Virus record (IMG/VR): IMGVR_UViG_3300045988_085215
Span: 1 to 34,584 of that record
Strand: one strand, 5' to 3'
DNA: 34,584 nucleotides
DNA from: a virus
The translations under genes and the position numbers were made by a program. Shown piece by piece: positions 14,901 through 34,254 of this stretch. The number at the start of each line of letters is the position of its first letter. Within the stretch, counting starts at the first letter, position 1. Under the pieces are notes generated by a model that searched no databases, was not told the origin of the DNA, and was given only the letters and a program-made list of their open reading frames with translations.

Positions 14901-14901
14901 T

Positions 14902-15792: not shown

Positions 15793-15807
15793 CAAGGGGG
15801 TGATTAA

Positions 15808-18101: not shown

Positions 18102-18277
18102 CAGACCTACAAAGAAAAATGATAGAGAAACTAGGACTATCAAAAGAAGACTTCGAGCCTATCAATAAAGACAGGCTACTAGAAGAAGCATACCTAAAAG
18201 CAGAGTATAATTCGATTCTATTAGAACAGTTAGGAGGAGTGAGCGATGATTTACAGATTAATGAAACTAAGAATTAG
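18098..18277 (+). CDS. hypothetical small protein (59 aa) downstream of the fibre
   Basis: Not in the track. SD aaggagg lies 7 nt upstream, and ATGA overlaps the fibre stop codon. Sequence: MTDLQRKMIEKLGLSKEDFEPINKDRLLEEAYLKAEYNSILLEQLGGVSDDLQINETKN. Confidence 0.6.
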   Translation: MTDLQRKMIEKLGLSKEDFEPINKDRLLEEAYLKAEYNSILLEQLGGVSDDLQINETKN

Positions 18278-18389
18278 ACGAGAAGGCTTGACAGAAGAAA
18301 ATAAGAACTTGCTTGATGTATATTTGCTAGGTGGCAGAATTTCGCAAGCGCAGTATGAAGAATTAATGCAGATTAAGGAGGATAAGTAA
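18246..18389 (+). CDS. XkdX-like small phage protein (47 aa)
   Basis: Not in the track. SD aggagg. MIYRLMKLRIRREGLTEENKNLLDVYLLGGRISQAQYEELMQIKEDK resembles the XkdX family pattern and lies just before the holin gene. Confidence 0.6.
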   Translation: MIYRLMKLRIRREGLTEENKNLLDVYLLGGRISQAQYEELMQIKEDK

Positions 18390-18392
18390 ATT

Positions 18393-18659
18393 ATGGACTT
18401 TACAAGTTTAACTCAGTACTTTGTGTTGGTTGTTATGGTAGCGTGTTTAGTAGTTGGCTATATTCTCAAAACATCATTTGACTTTGTGCCTAATAAGTAC
18501 ATCCCTACAATTTTGGCAGTAGTTGGCGCAGTCCTAAACGCTATCGTAAGTGGCGTGTCAGTAAACTCTATCGTTTATGGCGCTTTAATGGGTTTAGCCT
18601 CTACAGGCTTACACCAGGCCTTCACTAGATTCGTTGAAGGTGAAAAAGAAGGTGTTTAA
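18393..18659 (+). CDS. holin
   Basis: 88 aa with 2-3 hydrophobic helices and a charged C-terminus (EGEKEGV). It lies upstream of the endolysin gene. Confidence 0.75.
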   Translation: MDFTSLTQYFVLVVMVACLVVGYILKTSFDFVPNKYIPTILAVVGAVLNAIVSGVSVNSIVYGALMGLASTGLHQAFTRFVEGEKEGV

Positions 18660-18662
18660 GCT

Positions 18663-18878
18663 ATGAACGAAGCACAAGCAATCTACACTGTAATTATTGG
18701 AGTAGGAGCATTGTCGGGGGTGATTATGCCTGTTATTAAACTAAACAATAGCATTACAAAACTAACAAGCGCTATTGAATACATGGGTACAGACAATAAA
18801 AGACAGGACACACGACTTGACGCGCACTCTAAGGAGTTAGATGACCATGAGCGCAGAATTTCGCACTTAGAAGGATAA
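18663..18878 (+). CDS. XhlA-like membrane protein (lysis accessory)
   Basis: 71 aa with an N-terminal TM helix followed by a coiled coil ending LDDHERRISHLEG, as in XhlA-family proteins. Confidence 0.65.
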   Translation: MNEAQAIYTVIIGVGALSGVIMPVIKLNNSITKLTSAIEYMGTDNKRQDTRLDAHSKELDDHERRISHLEG

Positions 18879-18893
18879 AGGAGGTTTTTTTAT

Positions 18894-19796
18894 ATGGGAT
18901 ATATCTTTAAAACAAATATTGCAAATAGAGCAAACTATGGCAAGAAAAGAAACACGGCTAACATTAAATATCTTGTATATCATTATACAAGCAATGACGG
19001 AGACCATGACGAGGGAAATGGAAACTATTTCCATAACAACGTTGTAAAGGCTAGTGCTCATTATTTTGTGGATGATGATTCCGTTACGCAGTCAGTCTAT
19101 GATGATTATGTAGCATACTCAGTAGGGGGCAAGTGTCAAAGCAACCATCATCCACTTTATAAAATCTGCACTAACTCAAACTCAATTAGTATTGAGATGT
19201 GTGACACCACAAAAGACGGCACTGTAGCCATCTCAGAAGCCACAATGGCAAACGCAATTGAACTCGGCAAGATTATCATGAAGAAATATAACATTCCATT
19301 AGACCGAGTTATTAGACATTACGACGTAAACGGCAAGTTATGCCCAAACTGCAATGACCTATTAAACGACAATACATGGAATGCCTTTAAATCGCGTTTA
19401 AATGGCGTTACAGTGCAGATTCCTAATACTAATACAAATACACCCGTACGCCATGAAACAGCGCCTACAGGGCATAAAAACGGCTATGACGAATGGGTGG
19501 CTCGACTACAAAGAGAATTGAACGCTCAGTTCCATAAAGGACTAGTTGTGGACGGCTTAAGAGGCTCAAAAACCCTTGGCGCTTGTGTAACAGTCAAACG
19601 AGGAGCAAGGGGCAACATCACTCGCCTAATTCAAGAAAGGCTTAATAGCGTAGGCTTTCACATTTCAACAGATGGTATTTTTGGAAGTGGCACTGAAAAA
19701 GCCGTTAAAGTATTCCAAAGAAATAGAGGGCTAAGCGCAGATGGCATTGTAGGACGCAACACGTGGGATTGGTTACTCCGAGGAACAAAAAAATAG
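18894..19796 (+). CDS. endolysin: N-acetylmuramoyl-L-alanine amidase (Amidase_2/PGRP) with two PG_binding_1 repeats
   Basis: YLVYHYTSN...AHYFVDD...RHYDVNGKLCP is an amidase_2 signature. The C-terminal GLVVDGLRGSKTLGA and GLSADGIVGRNTWDWL are peptidoglycan-binding repeats. Confidence 0.9.
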   Translation: MGYIFKTNIANRANYGKKRNTANIKYLVYHYTSNDGDHDEGNGNYFHNNVVKASAHYFVDDDSVTQSVYDDYVAYSVGGKCQSNHHPLYKICTNSNSISIEMCDTTKDGTVAISEATMANAIELGKIIMKKYNIPLDRVIRHYDVNGKLCPNCNDLLNDNTWNAFKSRLNGVTVQIPNTNTNTPVRHETAPTGHKNGYDEWVARLQRELNAQFHKGLVVDGLRGSKTLGACVTVKRGARGNITRLIQERLNSVGFHISTDGIFGSGTEKAVKVFQRNRGLSADGIVGRNTWDWLLRGTKK

Positions 19797-19807: not shown

Positions 19808-19837
19808 GAGGGTTGGCATAAAGTCAACCCCTTTTTA
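19808..19837. terminator. bidirectional rho-independent terminator between convergent modules
   Basis: Stem gggttggc / gtcaaccc with loop ataaa, flanked by an A-run upstream and a T-run downstream. Confidence 0.75.
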
Positions 19838-20080
19838 TTTTACCTCAAAACTTGCGATTTCTTGACAGCCGACAGGTGAACCGTACTCATCATCTAGTTC
19901 TACTTCATGGACTAGTAAATAGTCATATCCCATCAATTTTGCATTGATTTCAGATGCGCCATGGGCAACGCTTCTCGCCCATGCAATCGCTTCACTCATA
20001 TTACTGTATGAGTACAAATCCCAACTTTCAATAACTGCTCCATCTTTTTCTTTTATGGCTTCTACCAAGTATTCCTTCAT
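19835..20080 (-). CDS. hypothetical protein (81 aa)
   Basis: ORF in a minus-strand operon, 12 nt downstream of the 82-aa ORF. No family recognised. Confidence 0.6.
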   Translation of the reverse strand: MKEYLVEAIKEKDGAVIESWDLYSYSNMSEAIAWARSVAHGASEINAKLMGYDYLLVHEVELDDEYGSPVGCQEIASFEVK

Positions 20081-20092
20081 AGTTCATACCAC

Positions 20093-20341
20093 CTAATATA
20101 ATCTCATTCTAGCAACCCATTCATCACGGTCTAGAACTCTTACTTCTTCATAGTTGCAGTAAGGCTCTTTATTTTCCTTTTCCTTTACTGCTCCCATGAA
20201 TTCGAAGGCTTCATGTTTATCATTTGTTTCAAGGATTGGGGCGTATTGTGTAAGATACCCTTCCAAGTCATAACCGATTAACACAACCTCATATCTCATT
20301 GTTCTGTTTTCGTTTTCGTTTTCTTTTCTAATAATTTTCAT
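20093..20341 (-). CDS. hypothetical protein (82 aa)
   Basis: SD aaaaggaga lies upstream (reverse complement of 20345-20353), and a promoter lies directly upstream. Confidence 0.6.
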   Translation of the reverse strand: MKIIRKENENENRTMRYEVVLIGYDLEGYLTQYAPILETNDKHEAFEFMGAVKEKENKEPYCNYEEVRVLDRDEWVARMRLY

Positions 20342-20370
20342 TTTATTCTATCTCCTTTTCTATACTTCTA

Positions 20371-20398
20371 ATTATACTCATTTATATATGTATGTCAA
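20371..20398 (-). promoter_or_regulatory. sigma-A-type promoter (TTGACA-N16-TATAAT)
   Basis: The reverse complement reads ttgacatacatatataaatgagtataat followed by tagaagtatagaaaaggaga. Confidence 0.6.
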
Positions 20399-20401
20399 TA
20401 T

Positions 20402-20920
20402 TTATTTGTTAATTTCCTCAAAAATAATTTGTTTAGCTAGCATATGATGGCATACATAAATACTACTAAATGGAGGGTTGATACTAGGCTTTTGGTCGTC
20501 ATAGTTCTTAAAATAAGATACCCTCTTATTCAAGTATAAGCACTCGAACTCGTTATCCCTAAACATTTCAAATCTTCTTTTACTCTCAAACAAGCCGACT
20601 ACTCCGACAAGCATTGCGAACGGCTTACCAATTTCAAAGAGTCTCTGCAATACCTCCGTTTTGAGGCTATACGGTGGATTAGAAATGATATAGTCACATT
20701 GTGGGGGATTCATTGTGAAGAAGTCCTCTCCGTTGTCTATGTGGCTATAAATGACCTTACAGCCCATATCTCTAAACTCCTTTACAAATAGACTTTGCTC
20801 AGTATCGAAAGGACACCACACAACCGAGCCTTTCTTTACATATTTCTTTATTGGTTCAATGGCATATGATGGGGTGTAGTACTCATCATTCTTGTTTTTT
20901 GCAACCTCAGAAACTATCAT
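20402..20920 (-). CDS. putative N6-adenine DNA methyltransferase (NPPY)
   Basis: 172 aa. Motifs are EYYTP near the N-terminus, VVWCPFD (AdoMet-site-like) and IISNPPYS (motif IV). Confidence 0.65.
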   Translation of the reverse strand: MIVSEVAKNKNDEYYTPSYAIEPIKKYVKKGSVVWCPFDTEQSLFVKEFRDMGCKVIYSHIDNGEDFFTMNPPQCDYIISNPPYSLKTEVLQRLFEIGKPFAMLVGVVGLFESKRRFEMFRDNEFECLYLNKRVSYFKNYDDQKPSINPPFSSIYVCHHMLAKQIIFEEINK

Positions 20921-20921
20921 A

Positions 20922-21104
20922 CTACATCAACTCCCTCTCCATATCTTCTCTAATGAGTTCTAAGATGTAGCCACCCATAGATGGCTTGCTTTCGAGCCAT
21001 TCGAGCACCTCGGGTTCTAGTTTCTTGTTAACTCTAACAGAAACTAACTTTGTATTGTTCTTTATGTACTTTCTAGCGCTTCTCTTTTGACTTTCTGATA
21101 CCAT
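20922..21104 (-). CDS. ribbon-helix-helix (CopG/Arc-like) DNA-binding protein
   Basis: 60 aa from the internal ATG at 21104 (SD aaggaga). KLVSVRVNKKLEPEVLEWLESKPSMGGYILELIREDME fits a beta-strand plus two helices. The longer track start (21170) lacks an SD. Confidence 0.55.
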   Translation of the reverse strand: MVSESQKRSARKYIKNNTKLVSVRVNKKLEPEVLEWLESKPSMGGYILELIREDMERELM

Positions 21105-21108
21105 AATT

Positions 21109-21285
21109 TTACATCTCCTTTTTAATACGTGTACAAATCTCGTCCATGTCACTATCTTGTGAGCATACATTGTACATGCATGTACCGCAGTTTTTAGAGA
21201 AAGGACATTCCGCTTTTGTCACTTCTCTACATTTCTTAAACTTCTTTGACATGTGTTCCATTCTTTCGTTATCAACAATACTCAT
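21109..21285 (-). CDS. Cys-rich small protein (58 aa)
   Basis: Not in the track. Strong SD aaggagg. MSIVDNERMEHMSKKFKKCREVTKAECPFSKNCGTCMYNVCSQDSDMDEICTRIKKEM contains six Cys residues. Confidence 0.55.
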   Translation of the reverse strand: MSIVDNERMEHMSKKFKKCREVTKAECPFSKNCGTCMYNVCSQDSDMDEICTRIKKEM

Positions 21286-21298
21286 TTTTCGTTCCTCC

Positions 21299-21505
21299 TT
21301 AGTCTTCTCTTAAATTGTATCTTCTTGCATATGTTTTATAAACAAGGCTTCTAGTTCTAAAGTCTGCTTCTTCTGTAGCCAACCATTCGTTGGCTTCTTC
21401 CATGCTTTCAAACTTTCTTGAGTACCCTGTTAGTCTCCCAAAATTGAACTTTTCAGATACTCCGTAAATATAACCGTTCTTTTTGAAATAATTTGTTGCT
21501 TTCAT
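21299..21505 (-). CDS. hypothetical protein (68 aa)
   Basis: SD aggagg. It is the first gene after the promoter at 21553-21580. Confidence 0.6.
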   Translation of the reverse strand: MKATNYFKKNGYIYGVSEKFNFGRLTGYSRKFESMEEANEWLATEEADFRTRSLVYKTYARRYNLRED

Positions 21506-21552
21506 AATCTTTCCTCCTAGGGGGTTTACCCTTTTCCTTTTCTACACTTATA

Positions 21553-21580
21553 ATTATACTCGACTTTACAACTATGTCAA
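21553..21580 (-). promoter_or_regulatory. sigma-A-type promoter (TTGACA-N16-TATAAT)
   Basis: The reverse complement reads atatgcttgacatagttgtaaagtcgagtataat followed by tataagtgtagaaaagg. Confidence 0.6.
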
Positions 21581-21631
21581 GCATATTATTAAACTTTTTT
21601 AAGAAAAATAATAAGGAGTGGTTCACACTCC

Positions 21632-21940
21632 CTAAAAAATGAATTGATATCCTTTATACTCATTATTGACCTTTTCAACCTCAGTAGACATTTCAACAAG
21701 TACTTTTGTAAGTCTGCTCATATCCTTAGGGGTTAACCCTACAAGGTTTACAAATGTTAAACGGAACTCTACATCGTAAACTTGATTAATTTTGAAGTTT
21801 TCATTCTTAAGTTGTATTTTAGCAAGTCTATAGCCGAAGCCGTTAGTTATCAATGATGATTCTAACTTGTCGGCTAACTTGTGTTTGATGTCGCTCACTT
21901 CTCTAAAATTTAATGTTTTCAATAATTCTTCATTAGTCAT
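21632..21940 (-). CDS. hypothetical protein (102 aa)
   Basis: SD aaaaaggaga upstream. No family recognised. Confidence 0.6.
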   Translation of the reverse strand: MTNEELLKTLNFREVSDIKHKLADKLESSLITNGFGYRLAKIQLKNENFKINQVYDVEFRLTFVNLVGLTPKDMSRLTKVLVEMSTEVEKVNNEYKGYQFIF

Positions 21941-21957
21941 AATTCTATATCTCCTTT

Positions 21958-22182
21958 TTAATAATATACCTTTTCAAAAAACATTTCTACTAACTTGTCT
22001 AATAGTTCGTTAGTCATTTCAATCTCTAATGCGAATGTTACATGGTTTAGTTCATGCTTTACGCAGTCAACAAAGTATGCGCTACTTCTCATATAATCAA
22101 GGCTTTCAAACTGCACTTGGTTTTTGATATCCATGTTTTCTTGTGTCTTTCTTACGATTTCTTCTAAGTTGATGTTTTCCAT
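21958..22182 (-). CDS. hypothetical protein (74 aa)
   Basis: It is the first ORF after the promoter at 22213-22240. No family recognised. Confidence 0.55.
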   Translation of the reverse strand: MENINLEEIVRKTQENMDIKNQVQFESLDYMRSSAYFVDCVKHELNHVTFALEIEMTNELLDKLVEMFFEKVYY

Positions 22183-22212
22183 ATCTGTATACCTATTTTC
22201 TTTACAACTCTA

Positions 22213-22240
22213 ATTATACTCTATATCTAGCATATGTCAA
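22213..22240 (-). promoter_or_regulatory. sigma-A-type promoter (TTGACA-N16-TATAAT)
   Basis: The reverse complement reads atatgcttgacatatgctagatatagagtataat followed by tagagttgtaaagaaaa. Confidence 0.6.
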
Positions 22241-22268
22241 GCATATTATGAAAGTTTATGAGGGAATT

Positions 22269-22301
22269 TTTACACCACCCTATAGCAATATTTACACCAC
22301 C
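22269..22301. repeat. two 11-bp direct repeats tttacaccacc with a 22-bp period
   Basis: The copies lie at 22269-22279 and 22291-22301, upstream of the -35 of the 22213-22240 promoter. Confidence 0.7.
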
Positions 22302-22420
22302 TTAAAAAGCCCCATATTTAAGCGTGTAAGAGACTTTACTATAAATTTGATAAGTTGCACCTATAAGATATAAACAACGCTCAGAATGGCAGATTTAAAG
22401 AAATAGAGGTATATACGCAA

Positions 22421-22446
22421 TTAAAAAGGTAGGATAGTTCCTACCA
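22421..22446 (-). terminator. rho-independent terminator of rep
   Basis: On the minus strand: ggtagga-acta-tcctacc followed by tttttaa, starting 2 nt after the rep stop codon. Confidence 0.7.
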
Positions 22447-22447
22447 A

Positions 22448-23284
22448 TTATAGGCTTTCTAATAATCTGCCTAATTCATTATGTAAGCCGTTCAGTTCGT
22501 TGCTTTCTTCTTTCTTGTTATCTGCAACCATGAAACGCTTGCCACTACTAAACTTTTTAGGGTCTGTATAGTCAAAACTAAATTTGTAATATTGAACACG
22601 ACCATTCTTTTTTACTTTCTCATACTTGAGATTCTTGATACATTTACACTTTTCATTTAGTTCTTTTATAGCCTTGTTTATTGTATATCTTTCAAAGTCT
22701 GCTCTATTGAAATTTCCATTTGTAGCCATGTATGCTTCCTTTGGAAGTCCGAACATGTCTTTCAGTTGTTTAGTAGAATAATCAATACCCATGAAGTCAA
22801 TATTTGACATTTTCCATTTATCCTTCATCAAGTTCTGATATAACATCATAGAATATTTAGACTTTAAACCTATTAAATCATCATTTAAGAATCTTACGAA
22901 TTTATCCTTCAATTCATATACTAATGGCAAATAGTCGCTATCAAACATAATATAGAAAGTATTTTTTGATAATCTTACTCGTCTAATTATTGAACCACTC
23001 TCGAAGCCGTCTTCACTATTGAATTCTATCTTAGAGTTATCTCTTAGTTTGTCAAGTTCTTTTTTAATTCTAGTATAGCGTCCTGTCTCATTCTCTATAC
23101 CTAAAAAGTTAAATAGTTCCTGTTTGTTGATTGCTACTTCGTCTCTTTCATTTAATCCGTTTCTTAGTGAAGCAATGCTTACATAAAATAATTTTTGTTG
23201 TGTAACACTGAAACGAGTGCTCTTTTTTGCTAGTGTGTTACTCATTGCCACTACTTGATTTTTTAATGTGTTTCTATCTGTCAT
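22448..23284 (-). CDS. plasmid-type replication initiator (Rep_3 / RepB-like)
   Basis: 278 aa. N-terminal VVAMSNTLAKKSTRFSVTQQKLFYVSIASL and central FVRFLNDDLIGLKSKYSMMLYQNLMK match the Rep_3 pattern I recall (N.L...y.L...E, then F..f.l..l..lkSkYs.rlYelL). Iterons lie directly upstream. Confidence 0.75.
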   Translation of the reverse strand: MTDRNTLKNQVVAMSNTLAKKSTRFSVTQQKLFYVSIASLRNGLNERDEVAINKQELFNFLGIENETGRYTRIKKELDKLRDNSKIEFNSEDGFESGSIIRRVRLSKNTFYIMFDSDYLPLVYELKDKFVRFLNDDLIGLKSKYSMMLYQNLMKDKWKMSNIDFMGIDYSTKQLKDMFGLPKEAYMATNGNFNRADFERYTINKAIKELNEKCKCIKNLKYEKVKKNGRVQYYKFSFDYTDPKKFSSGKRFMVADNKKEESNELNGLHNELGRLLESL

Positions 23285-23308
23285 ATATAATCCCTTCTTT
23301 CTGTCTCT

Positions 23309-23337
23309 ATATTAACTCCTATGGCAACAAATGTCAA
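23309..23337 (-). promoter_or_regulatory. rep promoter (TTGACA-N17-TAATAT)
   Basis: The reverse complement reads ttgacatttgttgccataggagttaatat. The iterons begin 14 nt upstream of the -35. Confidence 0.55.
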
Positions 23338-23350
23338 GCCCATATTTAAA

Positions 23351-23415
23351 CAATCTAAACTCCCCATATATGATAATCTAATTTACCCATATAGAATAAT
23401 CTAAACTCCCCATAG
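23351..23415. repeat. three iterons with a 23-24 bp period
   Basis: aatctaaactccccata (23352-23368), aatctaatttacccata (23376-23392) and aatctaaactccccata (23399-23415). Confidence 0.8.
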
Positions 23416-23468
23416 TATCTATATAATCAAATAATTAAAATAAATAATATAAATAATATAAATAAAGA
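23416..23468. repeat. AT-only tract with a 9-bp tandem repeat (candidate DNA unwinding element)
   Basis: About 53 bp with almost no G or C. aaataatat occurs twice, followed by aaataaaga (23442-23468). The tract is adjacent to the iterons. Confidence 0.55.
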
Positions 23469-23539
23469 GGAACTGAAACATATAGAGAGAAAAGAAAAAA
23501 AGTCTTGACTTTAGATATAAATAGTAGTAGTATATATGT

Positions 23540-23640
23540 GTAGTAAGAAAGCAGTACTTACTACTAACTTGATTCGATTCTTTTCATAATCTATCTCCAT
23601 ATTTTTTAGAGGTGTATCAAAAGATACATCTCATTTTTTT
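23540..23640 (+). ncRNA. candidate sRNA, unit A (about 100 nt)
   Basis: Promoter TTGACT (23505-23510)-N17-TAGTAT (23528-23533). 5' stem gtagtaag/cttactac. An anti-SD/anti-start stretch cttttcataatctatctcc. Terminator gaggtgtatc-aaaa-gatacatctc followed by attttttt. Confidence 0.5.
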
Positions 23641-23698
23641 ATTAAGAAGATTTAAAAATGTATTGACTTTTTAACTATTTAGTGGTAGTATTATAAAT

Positions 23699-23810
23699 GT
23701 AGTAAGGGATAAGTACTTGCTACTAGTGATTTTCTAATGTTTTTCATTAATTGATATCTCCTTTCGTCTATAGAATTAGAGGTGTACTATTGTACATCTC
23801 TTTTTCTTTT
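23699..23810 (+). ncRNA. candidate sRNA, unit B (about 110 nt)
   Basis: Promoter TTGACT (23663-23668)-N17-TAGTAT (23686-23691). 5' stem gtagtaag/cttgctac. Stretch tttttcattaattgatatctccttt. Terminator agaggtgtac-tatt-gtacatctct followed by ttttctttt. Confidence 0.5.
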
Positions 23811-23876
23811 GTCTTAAATGCTTAAAATAAGGCTATAGAGAGACAAAACGCTAAACATGAAGAATAACACCAATTA

Positions 23877-23897
23877 TATATAAAAGTCGCTTAGAAT
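23877..23897. repeat. 21-bp exact direct repeat, copy 1 (tatataaaagtcgcttagaat)
   Basis: Identical to 24138-24158. A diverged copy lies at 22367-22389. Confidence 0.9.
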
Positions 23898-24137
23898 GGC
23901 TATAATGAGCAAATAAGGCTATATCTGTTTATATTATTAGTTTATGAATGTAGGTCTATCAACTAAACACGCCAAGGCGTAGCCTTAGAGACCATTACTG
24001 ATAATAAAATTAGAACACTAATATAGATGATTAAATGAGCGTAGCGCAGATAGACAAAGAAAGAGGGATAAGGCGCGCCACGGCTCAAAAATGGACGTAT
24101 GAGCGACGTTTACGCCTAATAGGTAATTTACCACGGT

Positions 24138-24158
24138 TATATAAAAGTCGCTTAGAAT
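24138..24158. repeat. 21-bp exact direct repeat, copy 2
   Basis: Identical to 23877-23897. The two copies bracket a 240-bp segment that contains a GC-rich island. Confidence 0.9.
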
Positions 24159-24250
24159 CGAAATTTAGGGCTATTTAGAGTGTATAAAAAAGTTATGGAG
24201 GATTTTAATTTGCACTAGACAAGTTATAAAATATATGCTAGTATATATGT

Positions 24251-24358
24251 GTACTAAGAGAACTTAGTACTTTGGTTGTTTGTTTTTTTCATTAGTATTT
24301 CGTCTCCTTTCTTATATCTTAAAGGAAGAACCCTTCGCAATGTCGGAGGGTTTTTCTT
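24251..24358 (+). ncRNA. candidate sRNA, unit C (about 105 nt)
   Basis: Promoter TAGACA (24216-24221)-N17-TAGTAT (24239-24244). 5' stem gtactaag-agaa-cttagtac. Stretch tttttttcattagtatttcgtctccttt. Terminator cccttcg-caatgt-cggaggg followed by tttttcttttt. Confidence 0.5.
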
Positions 24359-24385
24359 TTTGCTTAAGAATATTCATATTTATGC

Positions 24386-24414
24386 TTGACTATGATATAA
24401 ATGTGAGGTAGTAT
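24386..24414 (+). promoter_or_regulatory. early promoter TTGACT-N17-TAGTAT (fourth copy of the sRNA-type promoter)
   Basis: ttgactatgatataaatgtgaggtagtat. The predicted start site is only about 9 nt before the TTG start at 24430. Confidence 0.55.
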
Positions 24415-24429
24415 GTAAGTGCAAAAGGC

Positions 24430-24702
24430 TTGACATTAGAAGAAGCCTATATCTTAGGACGTGTAAAAGCATTTTCAGATGAACATCTTATTTATCGTGA
24501 AACTAATGAATCTATTGCTAAGGCAATTGGTAAAAGCGTAAAATCTGTTAAAAATTGGATTAATAGCCTTGTTAAAAAAGGATATTTACGTAAGGAACAT
24601 CAAGGAAGATGTAGAATGCTATATTCAACAGACAAAAAGGGACTGACTGAAAATATTGAAAATTGGAGAAAAAAAACACATGAATCATTTAAAAAAAATT
24701 GA
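24430..24702 (+). CDS. winged-helix/HTH DNA-binding protein (90 aa), possibly replication-associated
   Basis: TTG start with a very short leader. ESIAKAIGKSVKSVKNWINSLVKKGYLRK looks like an HTH plus wing. The gene lies upstream of the helicase gene. Confidence 0.5.
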   Translation: MTLEEAYILGRVKAFSDEHLIYRETNESIAKAIGKSVKSVKNWINSLVKKGYLRKEHQGRCRMLYSTDKKGLTENIENWRKKTHESFKKN

Positions 24703-24829
24703 AGAAGAACCAAAAGAGCCTAAAAAAACACCGCTTGACGGTATGACACTAGATGAAAAAGTTGCATACTTAAAAGCAATGATAGACCAACGAAAATACG
24801 CAAACGAAAGCGACAGAGATTTTCTATAG
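24680..24829 (+). CDS. 49-aa ORF, either separate or the +1-frame continuation of the previous gene
   Basis: Not in the track. MNHLKKIEEEPKEPKKTPLDGMTLDEKVAYLKAMIDQRKYANESDRDFL. GGAG lies 11 nt upstream. This frame overlaps the 24430 frame across an A8 run (24669-24676). Confidence 0.45.
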   Translation: MNHLKKIEEEPKEPKKTPLDGMTLDEKVAYLKAMIDQRKYANESDRDFL

Positions 24830-24841
24830 GAGATGTAAACT

Positions 24842-26074
24842 ATGATTGATGATAAGGCATTATTCGAAATACAATGTAATATAATAGGTTACTTGTTAAA
24901 GCATAAAGAAGATATAGACAAGTTATCTATTAATGAAAACTATTTTAAAGAGTTTGGCAATTCAAACTTCAAATATTTATTTAAAAGAATAAAGGAACTG
25001 CATAAAGAGGGGAGAGACGCAGAACTTCTCACGGATTTGTTAGAAGATAAAAACATAAATCAAGACTTTGTTTTTAACACTGTTTACAAAAGTAATCCTT
25101 ACGAAGAGATTGCAAGCATTCAAGGACTAGAAGATACAATTATAAGCGCCTATAAAGATAGACTTGTAAGAAGTGAATTTAGAAAATATGATAATGGCAA
25201 ATGTGATATTGATGAATATTTTTCTAATTTAAATATTATTAATAGTTTAGGAACTATTAAACAGGAAACCTTGGGCGTTGCAGATTTTAACTTTCTAGAG
25301 ACTGAAACCAACGCTATTATTGGTTTAGGCTTTCCAAAACTAGAAGCATTTTTGAAGATGAAAGAGCATGACTTTATGGTTATTTCTGCAAGTGGAACAG
25401 GAGGAGGAAAGACGGCTCTCGCTCTTAATATGCTGAGTGAACTATCAAAGCGTTATCCGTGTGTTTATTTTAATATGGAGATGGGCGAAGAAGATATAAA
25501 GGCGCGCTTGTTATCAATTGAAACAGGAGTTCCAATGGATACCCTAGAAAGATACCGTTATATCACTGATACAGCGCTCAAGAGCCGTATTGATAACGGT
25601 ATAAATGAAATAGTAAACAATAAGAGAATAACGCTTGTAACAGGTGCTAAGAGCCTAGAAGCAATAAACACAAATATAAACAGATTGGATACAGATGAAC
25701 ACGTTATCGTGTTTGTAGACCACATCGGCATGATTAGAGGGCTCAGCCGTTCTTCCTTGTATGAGAAGACCACCGAGATAGCAAAGAGCCTCCGTGCGCT
25801 TGCATTAAATCATAACGTTACAATGATAGCATTATCTCAAGTAAGCCGAGGTCAGCCACAACAGGGGCAGAAAGCACAATTCAACGAAGCCCCAACGCTG
25901 AGCAGACTAAAAGAAAGTGGAGAGATTGAAAACAGCGCAAGACAGGTCGTATTCATCTATAATAAATGCGAAGATGATTATTATTTACGTATCGCAAAGA
26001 ATACGCGAGGAAGTGTTGACGTTGATATACCTATCGAGTTCACAAAGAAGATAATGACCATTAGAGAAAAGTAA
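24842..26074 (+). CDS. replicative DNA helicase (DnaB-like)
   Basis: 410 aa. It has a DnaB-N-like N-terminus, Walker A ISASGTGGGKTALALNM, Walker B VIVFVDHIGMI, and SQVSR downstream. Confidence 0.8.
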   Translation: MIDDKALFEIQCNIIGYLLKHKEDIDKLSINENYFKEFGNSNFKYLFKRIKELHKEGRDAELLTDLLEDKNINQDFVFNTVYKSNPYEEIASIQGLEDTIISAYKDRLVRSEFRKYDNGKCDIDEYFSNLNIINSLGTIKQETLGVADFNFLETETNAIIGLGFPKLEAFLKMKEHDFMVISASGTGGGKTALALNMLSELSKRYPCVYFNMEMGEEDIKARLLSIETGVPMDTLERYRYITDTALKSRIDNGINEIVNNKRITLVTGAKSLEAINTNINRLDTDEHVIVFVDHIGMIRGLSRSSLYEKTTEIAKSLRALALNHNVTMIALSQVSRGQPQQGQKAQFNEAPTLSRLKESGEIENSARQVVFIYNKCEDDYYLRIAKNTRGSVDVDIPIEFTKKIMTIREK

Positions 26075-26105
26075 GCCGTAACTATTATGTTATGGCTTTT
26101 TTTTA
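26074..26105 (+). terminator. rho-independent terminator
   Basis: Stem agccgtaac / gttatggct (one G-U pair) with loop tattat, followed by tttttttt. Confidence 0.7.
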
Positions 26106-26135
26106 TTTTATTCAAAACTTTTTTTAAATTAATGC

Positions 26136-26164
26136 TTGCATATATGTATTATATAGCGTATAAT
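26136..26164 (+). promoter_or_regulatory. sigma-A-type promoter (TTGCAT-N17-TATAAT)
   Basis: ttgcatatatgtattatatagcgtataat followed by gaacttgtaaggaaagagagg. Confidence 0.55.
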
Positions 26165-26194
26165 GAACTTGTAAGGAAAGAGAGGAACAGAAAA

Positions 26195-26495
26195 ATGAAA
26201 AAGTTTGATTTATGCGTTAAATTAATTGTTGAAGATGTAAAAGGAAGATTTAACAGGTTACTATAAAAATAGTGACATTGAAACGTGGGTGGACTACCTA
26301 GAGGAAACAGGTAGAGACAGCAGAGAAGTAAAAGAAGATGTATATTATACATTAAACAGATATAGCAATGACAACAATGTAGAACTATACTTCAATGACT
26401 GCAACGAGTTAGAACTTGAAGATGGCTCATTACTAACATACCGTAAACTAATGAATGCGGTTAGAAAAGAACTAAAAGTTGAGGGTTTATTTTAA
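26195..26495 (+). CDS. hypothetical protein with a split reading frame (23-codon ORF plus a +1-frame 84-codon continuation)
   Basis: The promoter and SD serve the ATG at 26195 (ORF ends at 26266). The track ORF 26289-26495 has a GTG start with no SD, and its frame is open from 26241. Removing one A from the aaaa at 26239-26242 joins the two as MKKFDLCVKLIVEDVKEDLTGYYKNSDIETWVDYLEE... Confidence 0.5.
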
Positions 26496-26502
26496 TAAAC
26501 CC

Positions 26503-26531
26503 TTGACTATATGTCATATATAGTATATAAT
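26503..26531 (+). promoter_or_regulatory. sigma-A-type promoter (TTGACT-N17-TATAAT)
   Basis: ttgactatatgtcatatatagtatataat followed by cataagtgtagaaagaaagagg. Confidence 0.6.
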
Positions 26532-26576
26532 CATAAGTGTAGAAAGAAAGAGGTAACCCCTCAAGGAGGAATAATT

Positions 26577-26855
26577 ATGAAGACAAGAAAGAATTCAAGA
26601 CAGAGAAGTTTTGCTATTGCTATGGATATGTACACAAATGAGCAGTACATTGACATGTTAGAAAATGAAAAAGGTATCTTTTACGTTGGTTGGGGCTATG
26701 ACGCAACATCAGACATTGAAGAATATGACGGCGAAGATTTAAGGATTAATCATTCAGCCGTTGCAGAAGTTAAAGTAGTCTACAACAAACAATTTGATGA
26801 ATACATGAATGTTGTAAAGACTTATACAGGAAATACTTACTTTGTACAATTATAG
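26577..26855 (+). CDS. hypothetical protein (92 aa)
   Basis: The internal ATG at 26577 has SD aaggagg. The track start at 26511 lies inside the promoter and is rejected. Confidence 0.6.
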   Translation: MKTRKNSRQRSFAIAMDMYTNEQYIDMLENEKGIFYVGWGYDATSDIEEYDGEDLRINHSAVAEVKVVYNKQFDEYMNVVKTYTGNTYFVQL

Positions 26856-26920
26856 GAGGACAGCCCAAAAATGGGCGCTCCTATTCATTGAATAAAATAT
26901 ATAGAGAATTGAAAAAATGC

Positions 26921-26949
26921 TTGACATTGATGTATAAAAGCAGTAAGAT
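26921..26949 (+). promoter_or_regulatory. sigma-A-type promoter (TTGACA-N17-TAAGAT)
   Basis: atgcttgacattgatgtataaaagcagtaagat, upstream of the Cro-like gene. Confidence 0.5.
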
Positions 26950-26976
26950 AAAGAAGAAGAAAGGAGGGGTGTTAAA

Positions 26977-27183
26977 ATGAATAAAGATTTTGACATGGCA
27001 ATGTTTACACCGAGACAGGCTAGACATTTAAGCGGTTTGAGCGTCCAAAAGGTCGCAGATAAACTCGGGATTAATAGTGTAACCTATTTCAATAAGGAAA
27101 AAGGTAAAACAAGATTCTATGTAGATGAAGCAATCCTTTTTGCTCATATTGTCGGTGTTCCGTTTAAAAATATTAAATGGTAA
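26977..27183 (+). CDS. XRE/Cro-like HTH transcriptional regulator (68 aa)
   Basis: RQARHLSGLSVQKVADKLGINSVTYFNKEKG is a classical HTH_3 pattern. SD aaggagggg. Confidence 0.75.
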   Translation: MNKDFDMAMFTPRQARHLSGLSVQKVADKLGINSVTYFNKEKGKTRFYVDEAILFAHIVGVPFKNIKW

Positions 27184-27204
27184 ATAACAGGAGGATTTAT
27201 AAAC

Positions 27205-27954
27205 ATGTATAATTTAGAAGTATTTAAAAACGAGGACTTTGGTTCAGTTAGAGCACTAGTTATCAACGATGAGCCTTGGTTCGTTGGTAAGGACGTTGCA
27301 GAAGTGCTTGGATATAAAAATCCAAATGACGCATTGGGTAAACACGTTGAAAATGAAGATAAAGATACAATCGCGATTCGCGATTCTATCGGTAGAAACA
27401 GAAACACTCCAATTATTAACGAAAGTGGTTTATATAGCCTAGTGCTTTCAAGCAAGTTAGAGAGTGCTAAGAAGTTCAAGCGTTGGGTAACTAGTGAAGT
27501 ACTCCCAACACTGAGAAAAACAGGCAAGTATAGCATTAATGAAATGGATGGCAAAGAACTACTTGCAAGAGCAGTTATTGAAGCAAACAAACTCATCGAA
27601 GAAAAAGACAGACAGATTGAAGAAATGAAACCGAAGGCACTTTTTACGGATGCAGTTTCTGCAAGTAAAGGAAGCATAACTATTGGAGCACTTGCGAAAA
27701 TGCTTACTCGTAACGGAGTAACAATTGGACAGAACCGTTTATATGCATGGCTTAGAGAAAACGGCTATGTAGTCAAGGATGGCAGAAACAAGAACGTAGC
27801 AACGCAGAGATACGTAGAGCAAGGCTTATTTGAATTAAAGGAAAACTTGACATTTGAAAATGGCGAACCTGTTATTAGAAAACCTACCACAATGGTAACA
27901 GGAAAAGGACAGAAGTATTTTATTAATATGTTTCTAAGAGGATTAAAATTTTAA
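27205..27954 (+). CDS. antirepressor (Bro-N domain plus KilAC/ANT C-terminal domain)
   Basis: The N-terminus FGSVRALVINDEPWFVGKDVAEVLGY...ESGLYSLVLSSKLESAKKFKRWVTSEVLP is Bro-N-like. The C-terminus ITIGALAKMLTRNGVTIGQNRLYAWLRENGYV is KilAC-like. Confidence 0.85.
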   Translation: MYNLEVFKNEDFGSVRALVINDEPWFVGKDVAEVLGYKNPNDALGKHVENEDKDTIAIRDSIGRNRNTPIINESGLYSLVLSSKLESAKKFKRWVTSEVLPTLRKTGKYSINEMDGKELLARAVIEANKLIEEKDRQIEEMKPKALFTDAVSASKGSITIGALAKMLTRNGVTIGQNRLYAWLRENGYVVKDGRNKNVATQRYVEQGLFELKENLTFENGEPVIRKPTTMVTGKGQKYFINMFLRGLKF

Positions 27955-27971
27955 TAAAGGAGAACAGTAAC

Positions 27972-28274
27972 ATGAAAAAAGACATTACAATTTTAGGAGT
28001 ACTTGATGAAGAAAAAGGAAAATTAGAACTGAGTAAGAACGGCTTAAGCGTTCCACATCTAGTCATGACAATTACTGCATTAACAAAAATGTTATTTAAT
28101 GATATGGACGAGGAAGACCACGACACAATGCGAAAACTTCTAAATGACATTGCAGAAGACCCCGAGGAAGAATTGAAAAAACAGTTTGAAGCGATTAGAA
28201 TTTCAAGACTATTAAAAAGCCTAAGAGAACTCGGAGAAGTCCTAGAAGACGATGAAGATGGTGCAGTAAATTAA
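27972..28274 (+). CDS. hypothetical acidic protein (100 aa)
   Basis: SD aaaggaga. The protein is rich in Asp and Glu. No family recognised. Confidence 0.6.
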   Translation: MKKDITILGVLDEEKGKLELSKNGLSVPHLVMTITALTKMLFNDMDEEDHDTMRKLLNDIAEDPEEELKKQFEAIRISRLLKSLRELGEVLEDDEDGAVN

Positions 28275-28405
28275 AGCAAAAGAAAAGGGGGAACTCCTAA
28301 ACGGAGAACCCCCAATTCTTATAACATCTTTATCTATTTATTTTATAAAAAAGATTGATGAAATATCAGACATGTTTATATTAACATACTAAAGGAGAGA
28401 TTACA

Positions 28406-28594
28406 ATGAGCAAATTTGAAAAGATTATATTAACGTTATTTAATATTTTAATTGTAGGAGTGCTAGGCTATAGCGTGATTAATGGCAATAATTACAATGT
28501 TGCAGAAATTAAAACGGTTATGGCTATATCATTAATGTTTAATTTATTGTTAATTGAATATATGCTTATTAGAGTAAGCAAGAAAAGAGGTTAA
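28406..28594 (+). CDS. small membrane protein (62 aa, two TM helices)
   Basis: SD aaaggaga. It has two hydrophobic helices and a basic C-terminus. Confidence 0.55.
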   Translation: MSKFEKIILTLFNILIVGVLGYSVINGNNYNVAEIKTVMAISLMFNLLLIEYMLIRVSKKRG

Positions 28595-28597
28595 GGC

Positions 28598-29536: not shown

Positions 29537-29538
29537 TA

Positions 29539-29567
29539 TTGACTTTATGCTATGCATGGCATATAAT
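29539..29567 (+). promoter_or_regulatory. sigma-A-type promoter (TTGACT-N17-TATAAT)
   Basis: ttgactttatgctatgcatggcatataat followed by gaatatagaaattaaaagagagg. Confidence 0.6.
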
Positions 29568-29602
29568 GAATATAGAAATTAAAAGAGAGGAGCAAAAAAG
29601 CA

Positions 29603-29917
29603 ATGACAGAAGAAGAACTACAAAATTCAATGTACAATGTAGAATGCGACCTTGAAAAGGTTGACGATGATGTATCGTATTTAATCGAGGTCTTAAGGTA
29701 CAGAACGGATGAAGTGAGCAGAATTAAAGAAGACCTAAAAGAAGACAGAATTCTTTATAGAGGACTAGACAACGTTCACTTTCATTTAGAAAACTGCACG
29801 GAAACTCTAGAGAAGATTTTAGTAGTATTTAGAGACCGTAGAAGCAAAACAGAAGAATATACAAAGATATGTAGCCGATTGGTTAAAGGAGGAATTGAAA
29901 ACAATGAGAGTAAATGA
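29603..29917 (+). CDS. hypothetical protein (104 aa)
   Basis: SD agaggag. No family recognised. Confidence 0.6.
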   Translation: MTEEELQNSMYNVECDLEKVDDDVSYLIEVLRYRTDEVSRIKEDLKEDRILYRGLDNVHFHLENCTETLEKILVVFRDRRSKTEEYTKICSRLVKGGIENNESK

Positions 29918-30128: not shown

Positions 30129-30143
30129 AGGATGAGAAGAAAG

Positions 30144-30302: not shown

Positions 30303-30308
30303 TTAATT

Positions 30309-31486: not shown

Positions 31487-31491
31487 TTAAC

Positions 31492-31520: not shown

Positions 31521-31554
31521 TTTATAAAAACATTAAAATAATTTAAAAAAAGTA

Positions 31555-33547: not shown

Positions 33548-33845
33548 TACAATAGGGATGGAACTTCACGAAGAAATTGTAACCGAGTTACAATACAAGT
33601 TAGAGGAGTTAGAACGTGATGTTGACGACTTAAACGAAGAAATAGCAGACAACGAACAGGCATATAAAGAAACCATTGTAGATTTAGAAAAAAAGATACT
33701 TAAAGTACTTGAAGACAAGAAGTGTAAAGAGTATGATGAAGCCGATGAATCTTACAACTATGGTATTGAAGTTTGTATCTGCTATGTAGAGGATTTATTC
33801 AAAGACTTATTAAATAAACTAGGAGGATATACAAATGTTGAATAG
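33540..33845 (+). CDS. hypothetical acidic coiled-coil protein (101 aa)
   Basis: ORF in the overlapping gene chain. Confidence 0.55.
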
Positions 33846-34254
33846 AGTTACACTAATTGGAAGAATGACAAGAGACCCCGAGTTAAGAAGAACAGGAAAC
33901 GGAAAGGCGGTTGCTTCTTTCAATTTAGCAGTTGGAAGAAACTACACACAAAGAGAAGGAGAGCCAACGGCTGATTTCATTAACGTAGTATGTTGGAGCA
34001 AGGTTGCAGAAAGCACGGCGCAGCATTGCGGTAAAGGCTCACTAGTTGGAGTTGATGGAAGGTTACAAACTAGAAATTATGAAAATAATCAAGGTCAGCG
34101 AGTATTTGTTACTGAGGTAATCGCTGATACTATTCAGTTTTTAGACCCTAAAGGAAACAACAACAGACAGGCAACACCAAAACAGGAAGCAACACAACCA
34201 ACAGTAGACAATAGCGCTATTAGAGAGTTTGAAGAAAGCGACATTCAATTTTAA
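33835..34254 (+). CDS. ssb: single-stranded DNA-binding protein
   Basis: [33 protein letters not shown]...FINVVCWSK...[16 protein letters not shown] is a canonical OB-fold SSB. It has an acidic C-terminal tip, EESDIQF. Confidence 0.95.

Follow-up and report, generated by a model that had tools for sequence, protein, structure and literature searches.

A Plasmid-Type Rep_3 Iteron Cassette as the Probable Main Replication Origin of a Human Gut Siphovirus and Candidate Phage-Plasmid

The segment at 22.43–23.47 kb of the phage genome described here is likely to be a working, plasmid-derived replication cassette and the main theta-replication origin of the phage. The nucleotide sequence of this segment matched that of a Rep_3 iteron replicon in its initiator domains, iterons, AT-rich region and predicted autorepression repeat, and related gut phages carried such a cassette at the same place. 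The prophage may be a circular episome kept by this cassette, a reading to which we give nearly even chances. Phage-plasmids are increasingly viewed as links through which genes pass between phages and plasmids; to our knowledge, few well-supported ones have been described in gut Bacillota.

Genome Features and Gene Content

The window, that is, the whole stretch of DNA analyzed (34,584 nt, positions 1 to 34,584 of IMG/VR record IMGVR_UViG_3300045988_085215), was the complete 34.5-kb genome of a tailed phage of human gut origin. The closed genome assumed in the sequence-only reading was supported by an identical terminal overlap of 55 nt. Virion, packaging and lysis genes were present (portal, TerL, scaffold, capsid, tail, tape measure, Dit, Tal, holin and endolysin), and no small terminase subunit was recognised in the genome. 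The coordinates of the replication features are listed in Table 1.

Table 1. Features of the replication region and replication-associated genes of the phage.
Feature	Position	Strand	Description	Evidence
Intrinsic terminator	22428..22445	-	directly 3' of rep stop codon	terminator scan
rep	22448..23284	-	278-aa Rep_3-family initiator, WH1 + WH2 domains	Pfam, PHROG 4402, RepE-type structures
rep promoter	23309..23337	-	TTGACA-17-TAATAT	promoter scan
Inverted repeat	23320..23344	.	TATGG(C)...(G)CCATA, iteron 5' half-sites	read from sequence
Iterons	23349..23414	.	three of 19-20 bp, 23-bp period	repeat search, TRF
AT-rich tract	23416..23468	.	3 G/C in 53 nt, 9-bp tandem repeat	TRF
sRNA-like units	23496..24368	+	three in tandem: 23496-23645, 23654-23815, 24207-24368	
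DnaD_N/HTH_36-type winged-helix gene	24384..24829	+		PHROG O-like/DnaD-like matches; orthologues
DnaB-family replicative helicase	24842..26074	+		PHROG 19, 5e-47; TIGR00665/TIGR03600
YqaJ/RecE-like exonuclease	28598-29536	+		PHROG 434, 4.6e-96
RecT	30309-31115	+		PHROG 148, 9e-95
Single-strand DNA-binding protein	33835..34254	+		PHROG 44, 6e-54

Gene functions were scanned with PHROGs, Pfam, NCBIfam and PADLOC between them, covering every non-overlapping ORF of 170 aa or more and most of the smaller ones, all but about a dozen that lay chiefly in the structural block. Within this scope, no integrase or other recombinase, no CI/S24-type repressor, and no ParA/ParB/ParM, toxin-antitoxin or resolvase was found, in agreement with the sequence-only reading, which had seen no integrase, S24 repressor or ParA/ParB. 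The only HTH repressor candidate was a 68-aa Cro-like protein adjoining Ant, with a weak HTH_3 match. The Cro-like and Ant genes had been taken as hallmarks of a temperate phage; both were present, but they do not prove temperance.

The DnaB-like helicase noted earlier was confirmed (Table 1). The DnaD-like gene upstream of it was interrupted by an in-frame TAG at 24409 and by a +1 frame change near the A8 runs at 24670/24692, as seen by two-frame tblastn, and its readable ORFs were 24430-24702 and 24656-24829. Intact orthologues of 147–159 aa carried Pfam DnaD_N/HTH_36, and the protein is likely a helicase adaptor. The YqaJ/RecE-like exonuclease and RecT presumably shift replication towards concatemers, as substrates for packaging at cos.

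The left arm consisted of four short units, three of them with almost identical consensus promoters. Its small proteins received no Pfam, NCBIfam or PADLOC assignment except for one short methyltransferase. A 60-aa ORF (20922-21104, minus strand) was considered as a ribbon-helix-helix protein and rejected, its single-sequence AlphaFold model being all-helical with no Foldseek match; a 102-aa ORF gave a low-confidence structure model with no significant match. GC skew tracked the coding strand and was uninformative.

Rep Protein and Structure of the Origin

Residues 12–153 of Rep matched Pfam Rep3_N (PF01051; E 1.4e-21, 77.8 bits against a cut-off of 22.4), and residues 171–237 matched Rep3_C (PF21205; E 3.5e-11, 43.6 bits against a cut-off of 21.1). 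The Rep_3 identity of this minus-strand ORF, read earlier from two signature regions with PF01051 named as the profile to search, was thereby established with both domains above their cut-offs. The ORF also matched PHROG 4402, "replication initiation protein", and a profile of its homologues aligned with the RepE/RepB-family structures 2z9o and 1rep over Rep residues 11–238 (RepE residues 32–258). Because an intrinsic terminator directly follows the stop codon, rep forms a single-gene unit; the next promoter past the terminator, at 22240-22213, matched the consensus at 12/12 positions in the promoter scan.

The three iterons were located at 23349-23368, 23372-23391 and 23395-23414, with a spacing of 23/23 bp (TRF period 23), or roughly two turns of the helix. 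In the whole genome, the iteron 19-mer with up to three mismatches was found three times, against 0.03 expected, and was confined to this array. The sequence-only reading had placed three 17-bp iterons at 23352-23415; their number, place and period of about 23 bp held, while the unit length was corrected to 19–20 bp. The adjoining AT-rich tract, reported earlier with the same limits and 9-bp repeat, was confirmed, and no other 53 nt of the genome proved as AT-rich; windows with three or fewer G/C started only at 23412-23416, and the period-9 repeat comprised 4.7 copies at 23425-23466. This tract is the presumed DNA-unwinding element.

The rep promoter lay between the iterons and the start codon, with TTGACA at 23337-23332 and TAATAT at 23314-23309 separated by 17 nt, and its position was kept in the related contigs L001, L009 and L017. 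Its -35 box was enclosed by an inverted repeat whose right arm was in phase (24 bp) with the iterons. The equivalent repeat of L009 (TATGGCT..AGCCATA) was built from L009's own iteron half-site, so that this operator-type repeat co-varied with the iteron sequence. By analogy with RepE and RepA, the repeat is presumed to be the operator for Rep dimers.

No DnaA box with one mismatch or fewer was found at 21.3–28.8 kb, and none within about 2 kb of the origin; genome-wide, DnaA boxes occurred at chance level. A DnaA box is found at the origin of many Rep_3 iteron replicons, but not of all. The iteron-plasmid anatomy that had been proposed from initiator, iterons and AT-rich tract was upheld, and was extended by the promoter-covering inverted repeat and the terminator. 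The same layout was present in small Rep_3/Mob_Pre plasmids of the sister clade.

Related Phages and Plasmids

All related phages examined that spanned the rep region carried the cassette at the same place, and the iteron sequence differed from phage to phage. Three to four iterons with the same 23-bp period and different sequences were found in L001, L009, L010, L011, L012, L017 and the plasmid L003; the exception was L002, whose contig starts about 200 nt upstream of rep, so that only the promoter was visible. In L009, L012, L017 and the plasmids L003 and L004, the iterons had an AT-rich tract on the side seen in the present phage. The phage-borne Reps, 38 clusters with 63–95% identity to the phage Rep, formed one clade, which argues that rep has been kept intact over a long divergence. 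Their sister clade comprised the Reps of Rep_3/Mob_Pre plasmids of about 3.7 kb (58–64% identical). These plasmids (L003-L008), with Rep_3, RNase_T and Mob_Pre, came from gut metagenome assemblies.

Between relatives, rep and the iterons were 61–84% identical at the nucleotide level, whereas the adjoining flanks were 94–100% identical. On this comparison of sequences, the divergence has the pattern of an allele swap, as in plasmid incompatibility determinants. In L011, a more distant phage contig, a plasmid-type Rep was flanked by two overlapping fragments of a Mob_Pre gene, and the contig looks like a recent plasmid-phage cointegrate; capture of a plasmid by a phage thus appears to happen.

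None of the approximately 80 related Rep or portal clusters listed was on a contig longer than 36.6 kb, which argues that the lineage does not integrate; contigs with more distant portals reached 66–92 kb. No integrase was seen in the 11–21-kb views of the relatives, and many related contigs ended at the presumed cos site, which in the present genome is placed at about 2.2 kb.

No near-identical DNA was found among GenBank phages, and Rep had no match above 31% identity in PLSDB. The portal matched one streptococcal "plasmid" in PLSDB (49% identical), which was rejected as a relative of the replicon, being an ordinary prophage with integrase and LexA; in this element a tyrosine integrase and a LexA-family repressor occupy the slot where the phage has its rep cassette. 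Among GTDB representative genomes, the Rep profile had no match, and the endolysin profile gave only a 46% match in an uncultured Clostridia MAG. The best plasmid matches for Rep and Mob pointed weakly to a plasmid of Amedibacterium (Erysipelotrichaceae). No clade member was seen in isolate genomes or PLSDB.

Proposed Replication Mechanism

A search of the DnaD-like and DnaB genes and their surroundings gave no other iteron-like cluster, and the genome scans (ORFs of at least 170 aa and most small ORFs) gave no further initiator family. Judged from these searches, the cassette was the only recognisable origin in the genome. Since a second origin was not found, the phage probably depends on Rep_3 for its ordinary replication under either lifestyle.

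After injection, the cos-ended genome would circularise. At the origin, we infer that Rep monomers would bind the three in-phase iterons, that the adjoining AT-rich tract would be opened, and that the DnaB-type helicase would be loaded, probably through the neighbouring small DnaD_N/HTH_36 winged-helix protein. Loading of the phage's own helicase is proposed because no DnaA box was found. The opened strands would be coated by the phage SSB, and host primase and polymerase would carry out theta replication, while Rep dimers on the half-iteron inverted repeat around the -35 box would keep transcription of rep at a low level. At a later stage, circles would be turned into concatemers by the YqaJ-type exonuclease and RecT, and the HNH/TerL machinery would cut these at cos.

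Helicase, SSB, exonuclease and RecT were all present, which counts in favour of a main origin at the cassette. Three points count against it. The N-terminal winged helix of the DnaD-like protein also resembles "O-like" phage initiators, and this protein may act as a second initiator at an unrecognised origin. An initiator under tight autorepression and subject to iteron handcuffing fits copy-number control better than burst replication, and transcription of rep alone, divergent from the helicase operon, is unusual for a purely lytic initiator.

sRNA-like Array Beside the Origin

The most unusual extra of the region was a conserved array of three tandem sRNA-like units adjoining the origin, each laid out as promoter, hairpin, anti-Shine-Dalgarno sequence and terminator. 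The units resemble csRNA in architecture only: the match of csRNA (Rfam RF02379) to 23537-23635 scored 22.2 bits (E 3.5), below the gathering threshold of 57. The folds were obtained by single-sequence folding; RNAalifold on a MAFFT alignment of the units, which aligned poorly, returned no structure. Target scans for duplexes and for ungapped complementarity gave only generic Shine-Dalgarno matches. Minus-strand mini-ORFs within the units were rejected, as their start codons were not kept (ATA and ACG in L009).

We give little credence to a wider proposal in which the clade consists of par-less phage-plasmids of gut Bacillota, the Rep_3 replicon having replaced the integrase and an RNA, not a CI-type protein, restraining the lytic genes. 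The restraining RNA would come from the three-unit array adjoining the origin and would act in the manner of P1 c4 and P4 CI RNA.

Lifestyle of the Phage

The reading held at nearly even chances is that of a phage-plasmid, a temperate phage whose prophage is a circular episome kept by the Rep_3/iteron cassette. Such membership is plausible from gene content: a full virion set, a plasmid-type initiator and non-integration were found, and partition functions were not. Neither the genome scans nor the views of relatives gave an integrase or recombinase, and the clade's contigs stayed short beside those of distant portals. The minus-strand cassette, between lysin and early operon, sits in the integrase/LexA slot of the streptococcal element; rep has its own terminator and a predicted autoregulated promoter, rep and iterons diverge between conserved flanks like incompatibility determinants, and the sister clade consists of real small plasmids. 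Precedents are Miko-type phages (PMC7157519) and crAssphage (PMC10983915).

Set against a phage-plasmid are a 34.5-kb replicon in which no ParA/ParB/ParM, toxin-antitoxin or resolvase was found, and the finding of no CI/S24-type repressor, only the weak Cro-like candidate. The near-consensus promoters ahead of the left-arm genes appear constitutive, like those of early genes, the ends of many related contigs coincide with the presumed cos site, as they would in virion DNA, the clade was not seen in isolate genomes or PLSDB, and ordinary phage replication already accounts for Rep. A phage-plasmid with no par system would be inherited by random segregation of multiple copies, by analogy with the sister plasmids of about 3.7 kb. 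Within the phage-plasmid reading, it is possible, though rather doubtful, that the same replicon serves the lytic and prophage states, as in N15 or lambda-dv; a dedicated prophage replicon, with DnaD-like protein and DnaB firing another origin as in P1 or Miko, is unlikely.

Somewhat under even chances are given to an obligately virulent phage, whose temperate ancestor lost its integrase/repressor module and whose slot now holds early genes and a captured plasmid initiator of lytic use only. The scans, which found no repressor, partition or addiction genes, agree with this, as do the left arm of four short units with its repeated consensus promoters, the orphan methyltransferases, which are typical anti-restriction cargo, the ends of relatives' contigs at cos, and a RepB-family gene in a strictly lytic Skunavirus record. 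Cro-like and Ant genes, which may persist in lytic descendants of temperate phages, count on the same side. A virulent phage is nevertheless at odds with the temperate-type backbone (ArpU, Ant, RecT/YqaJ), with a TerL 54% identical to those of streptococcal prophages, and with an initiator that is autorepressed, prone to handcuffing and encoded in a separate divergent unit, which would be odd in a purely lytic phage. Diversification of rep/iteron alleles is also more easily explained if related genomes must coexist in one cell.

That the cassette is a passenger or relic, a recently captured plasmid fragment with no phage role, was already disfavoured and is very improbable: the cointegrate-like L011 contig and the Skunavirus RepB-family case show how one might arise, but rep was intact and monophyletic in 38 clusters, down to 63% identity, with matching iterons and operator at the same position, and no other origin was found.

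Significance

A whole clade of non-integrating gut siphoviruses holds one plasmid-derived replicon in common, and the replicons closest to it are those of small mobilizable plasmids assembled from gut metagenomes, with at least one related contig being cointegrate-like. If the episomal state is true, the clade would offer a tractable case of replacement of an integrase by a replicon with no partition system. The 1.1-kb cassettes would then supply cloning replicons for poorly tractable gut bacteria, mutually compatible because the iterons differ from one relative to the next. Should the phage be virulent, it would show that a plasmid initiator under copy control can be taken over for a lytic origin, and phage-plasmid calls from a Rep match alone call for caution.

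Comparison with Known Systems

The closest likeness was to Rep_3 iteron theta plasmids, including L003-L008, which have the same two winged-helix domains as the phage Rep. In plasmids of the L003-L008 type the order is also the same: AT-rich tract, three to four iterons (23 bp), promoter with inverted partial iteron, and rep. Unlike in these plasmids, the cassette lies in a 34.5-kb phage, has DnaB and DnaD-like genes next door and its own iteron sequence, and is not accompanied by mob.

The lambda origin consists of four iterons and an AT-rich region, where O recruits DnaB helicase via an adaptor, and the module can run as the lambda-dv plasmid. Because lambda shares it, the layout of iterons and AT-rich tract alone does not prove a plasmid lifestyle. 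The O protein does not belong to the Rep_3 family, and the lambda origin is contained within its gene, whereas here the iterons are upstream of rep and accompanied by a predicted autorepression operator.

P1 (RepA, incC/incA iterons, ParAB) and N15 (RepA) resemble the present phage in having an iteron-binding initiator in a phage genome, and N15 may use one replicon in both states. P1 has, in addition, a distinct lytic replicon, a further iteron array for control, genes for partition and addiction, and Cre/lox, none of which were found here. In P1-like elements, replicase alleles swap at one position (PMC7969092).

Skunavirus sv66901, a Lactococcus phage, is likewise a cos-type siphovirus that infects low-GC Bacillota and carries a Rep_3-family gene. 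It differs in that its Rep is 23% identical, is an isolated case in the genus and has another genome position, and in that the phage is known to be virulent.

Among cluster A mycobacteriophages, those that carry repA (Miko, Rachaly and Jeeves) have extrachromosomal prophages (PMC7157519). The plasmid-like repA of these phages occupies the integrase slot and is needed only for stable lysogeny; when repA is deleted, burst size and DNA synthesis of Miko remain normal in lytic growth (PMC7157519). The prophage role in Miko was shown by deletion, while the gut phage is known from sequence alone. Miko-type phages differ further in having parABS, a known repressor and another RepA family, with no iterons seen. 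In both, the initiator gene lies downstream of the virion genes and is read in the direction opposite to the structural genes, and there is no integrase.

Carjivirus communis (crAssphage) is a RepL-bearing phage-plasmid although it has no lysogeny genes (PMC10983915). It is an unrelated phage with a host of another phylum and an initiator of another family. Like the present phage, Carjivirus communis, which is abundant in the gut, combines the lack of integrase, classical lysogeny genes and par with a plasmid-type replication gene.

Genome organization

The window ended in an exact 55-nt copy of its start; the 34,584-nt sequence was therefore considered an assembly closed into a circle, about 34.5 kb in length, as the sequence-only reading had proposed. 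The G+C content was 36.5%, and annotation with PHROGs and Pfam showed a siphovirus layout in three blocks (see table). GenBank phages gave no near-identical match to the window. The large terminase was at most 54% identical to streptococcal and other Bacillota prophage terminases, and the related contigs came from human gut metagenomes. The gene order at 64-7009 was unusual (HNH, portal, minor head, methyltransferase, TerL), no small terminase subunit was recognised, and the 241-aa ORF at 64-789 was not matched by any entry of Pfam, PHROGs, NCBIfam, or PADLOC. A conserved 60-aa ORF (20922-21104) was translationally coupled to the shorter of two orphan DNA methyltransferases.

Strong, near-identical promoters of one family (ATGCTTGACAT-N16/17-TATAAT-like) divided the left arm into short, separate units that all ended in a terminator; one promoter of this family also headed the HTH-Ant unit. 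At 22266-22296 (-), GGTGGTGTAAA occurred twice with a spacing of 22-23 bp, immediately upstream of the 22240 perfect-consensus promoter; the two copies may form a regulator binding site. The DnaD_N/HTH_36 gene upstream of dnaB was interrupted in comparison with the intact orthologues of 147-159 aa: it contained an in-frame TAG (24409), and its frame changed by +1 close to the A8 runs at 24670 and 24692. This could be real decay, slippage, or assembly error.

A probable cos site was located at about 2113-2299, immediately past the HNH endonuclease gene, with a GC-rich segment at about 2170-2230. Many related contigs had their start no more than 190 nt from a single point just beyond this gene; the starts of six contigs from six assembly records, two of them from the same sequencing run, were equivalent to window positions 2113, 2228, 2228, 2235, 2299, and 2299. 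Other contigs, including the window, ran through this point.

Features of the phage genome and of its replication region
Feature	Position	Strand	Content
Late block	64-19796	+	ArpU-like regulator, HNH endonuclease, portal, methyltransferase, large terminase, scaffold, capsid, tail tube, tape measure, Dit, Tal, holin, amidase endolysin
Middle block	19835-23284	-	Small ORFs, short methyltransferase, rep
Early block	24430-34254	+	DnaD-like winged-helix protein, DnaB helicase, 68-aa HTH protein, Ant, YqaJ/RecE-type exonuclease, RecT, MazG, SSB
Orphan DNA methyltransferase	4532-5482		
Orphan DNA methyltransferase, short	20402-20920		172 aa
ATGCTTGACAT-type promoters	22240-22213, ~21585, ~20400	-	
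ATGCTTGACAT-type promoters	26921, 24386	+	
rep	22448-23284	-	Rep_3 initiator
Inverted repeat	23320-23344		TATGG(C)...(G)CCATA
Iterons	23349, 23372, 23395		Three direct repeats, 19-20 bp
AT tract	23416-23468		9-bp tandem repeat
sRNA-like units	23496-23645, 23654-23815, 24207-24368	+	Three in tandem, between origin and early operon
DnaD_N/HTH_36 gene	24384-24829	+	Interrupted

The rep gene and its probable origin

In Pfam, the rep ORF scored clearly over the curated cut-offs for the two halves of the Rep_3 initiator, which bears out the Rep_3-like 278-aa initiator of the sequence-only reading, and a profile of its homologues aligned end to end with the solved structures of RepE and the RepB family. 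The iterons upstream of rep had a spacing of exactly 23 bp; a genome-wide search found these three, with 0.03 expected, and none elsewhere. The adjoining AT tract, with 3 G/C in 53 nt, was more AT-rich than any other stretch of the genome. The earlier description and coordinates were therefore right within a few bases. No DnaA box was found near the cassette formed by rep, iterons, and AT tract.

A promoter (TTGACA-17-TAATAT) was located between the iterons and the rep start codon. Its -35 box was enclosed by the inverted repeat, whose arms were the 5' half of the iteron, and whose right arm kept the phase (24 bp) of the three full iterons. Such an arrangement of operator and iterons allows dimers of RepE and RepA to shut down transcription of the genes that encode them; the inverted repeat matches this autorepression layout and is a predicted operator. 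In the related phage locus L009, the iteron was TATGGCAAGAAGTAGTTAT and the operator was TATGGCT..AGCCATA; as this operator matched L009's own iteron, the two elements change together. An intrinsic terminator directly followed the rep stop codon and a perfect-consensus promoter opened the next unit, so rep forms a cassette complete in itself, about 1.05 kb long.

No further iteron-like cluster was found in or near the DnaD-like and DnaB genes, nor any other initiator family in the genome; the cassette was therefore taken as the main replication origin of the phage, which it probably is. Judging from family behaviour, iteron-bound Rep monomers would melt the AT tract, loading of the phage DnaB helicase would follow, probably via the DnaD-like protein, and theta replication would be completed by SSB, host primase, and host polymerase; RecT and the exonuclease would then feed concatemer formation for cos packaging.

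Relatives of Rep and of the cassette

A protein database search gave 221 Rep homologues, and the neighbour-joining tree of the best 120 showed a clean two-way split. One group consisted of 38 clusters of 276-281 aa and held all the phage-sized contigs (at most 36.6 kb). The other comprised 82 clusters (283-285 aa), whose contigs measured about 2.5-4.4 kb and were small circular mobilizable plasmids encoding, besides Rep_3, an RNase_T-like exonuclease and a Mob_Pre relaxase. Their origins had the same order as that of the phage: AT-rich tract, 23-bp iterons, and promoter with an inverted partial iteron. Six examples (L003-L008) represented abundant circular gut plasmids of about 3.7 kb, with an exonuclease that was RNase_T/DnaQ-like; no member of this family was present in PLSDB, in which the closest plasmid, from Amedibacterium intestinale, showed 29-34% identity.

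Among the related phage loci, the cassette was compared in those whose sequence was readable upstream of rep, L002 showing the promoter only. In L001, L009, L010, L012, and L017, it was at the same place with 3-4 iterons, each locus having its own iteron sequence. In the three loci reaching far enough (L009, L012, and L017), the DnaD_N/HTH_36 gene and dnaB were divergent from it across a non-coding gap of 1-2.2 kb. The window shared 94-100% DNA identity with L001 left of 22300 and 61-84% in the rep cassette; at the protein level, the neighbours were 97-100% identical and Rep 71%. This steep divergence of Rep and iterons beside near-identical flanks indicates that the initiator and its sites act as a specificity module that diversifies rapidly or can be exchanged.

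In L011, a 25-kb IMG/VR contig of a more distant phage (portal 65%, TerL 69% identical), positions 1-2760 carried a plasmid-type Rep_3 gene (291 aa) with 3.5 iterons, between two overlapping Mob_Pre pieces and just upstream of ArpU-HNH-portal. It looks like a recent cointegrate of small plasmid and phage or an assembly chimera.

sRNA-like units beside the origin

Each of the three sRNA-like units had a promoter (TTGACT/TAGACA-17-TAGTAT), a 5' hairpin beginning about 7 nt past the -10 box, an unpaired U-rich stretch with UUUUCAU...CUCC, complementary to a start codon and Shine-Dalgarno sequence, and an intrinsic terminator. The same three units were present in each of L009, L012, and L017, and all 12 units folded as hairpin plus terminator (z-scores -2.6 to -6.8 against mononucleotide shuffles); the stems varied between copies with pairing kept. 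Compared with L012, this region was 79.5% identical over 1,059 nt, while Rep was only 64% identical at the protein level. Rfam gave a sub-threshold match to streptococcal csRNAs, a likeness in architecture only, and no convincing target was found within the phage. The units could serve in early-gene control, immunity, or host manipulation. A relatively GC-rich 240-nt segment (23897-24137), absent in L009 and present in L012, was located between direct repeats of about 20 nt, TATATAAAAGTCGCTTAGAAT (23877, 24138), and held a 47-aa ORF without a ribosome-binding site.

Integration genes and lifestyle

Four profile libraries, applied to the large non-overlapping ORFs and most small ORFs, detected no tyrosine or serine recombinase, excisionase, S24/LexA-type repressor, ParA/B/M, toxin-antitoxin pair, or resolvase, in agreement with the earlier statement that recombinase, excisionase, CI/S24 repressor, and ParA/ParB were absent. 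Integration, repressor, partition, addiction, and resolution genes were likewise absent from the gene tables of the relatives. Among the listed Rep-clade clusters and 43 portal clusters at a minimum of 81% identity, the longest contig was 36.6 kb, and portals at 53-55% identity were on contigs up to 66-92 kb; the lineage therefore does not reside in chromosomes. An annotated element whose portal was 49% identical had an integrase and a LexA-family repressor in the slot between lysin and early operon; in the window, this slot was occupied by rep and small ORFs.

An episomal (phage-plasmid) lifestyle has close to an even chance. The cassette occupies the integrase slot in opposite orientation, and its transcription unit is autonomous and, by prediction, autorepressed, but partition and addiction functions and a recognisable repressor are absent. 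The temperate-type backbone of the rest of the genome, the diversification of Rep and iteron alleles, and the plasmids of the Rep sister clade also point to an episome. Experimental precedents are the Miko-type mycobacteriophages, Cluster A phages with extrachromosomal prophages, in which a plasmid-like repA at this position is required only for stable lysogeny (PMC7157519), and crAssphage (PMC10983915). By the screening logic that Pfeifer et al. use, the genome would count as a putative phage-plasmid, and these authors caution about such candidates (PMC7969092). However, the left-arm genes stand behind three nearly identical consensus promoters and are thus early-gene-like, many contig starts after the HNH gene are as expected of cos-ended virion DNA, and the element was not found in isolate genomes, though its host appears uncultured.

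An obligately lytic lifestyle is only slightly less likely than the episomal one. The lambda origin also consists of iterons and an AT tract, and a RepB-family gene is present in a lytic Skunavirus; therefore, the Rep hit alone cannot decide the lifestyle.

Phages with Rep_3 genes are already known, as are iteron replicons and phage-plasmids. What is new here is a clade of gut Bacillota siphoviruses with a common small-plasmid replicon and no par system, and also the RNA array beside the origin.
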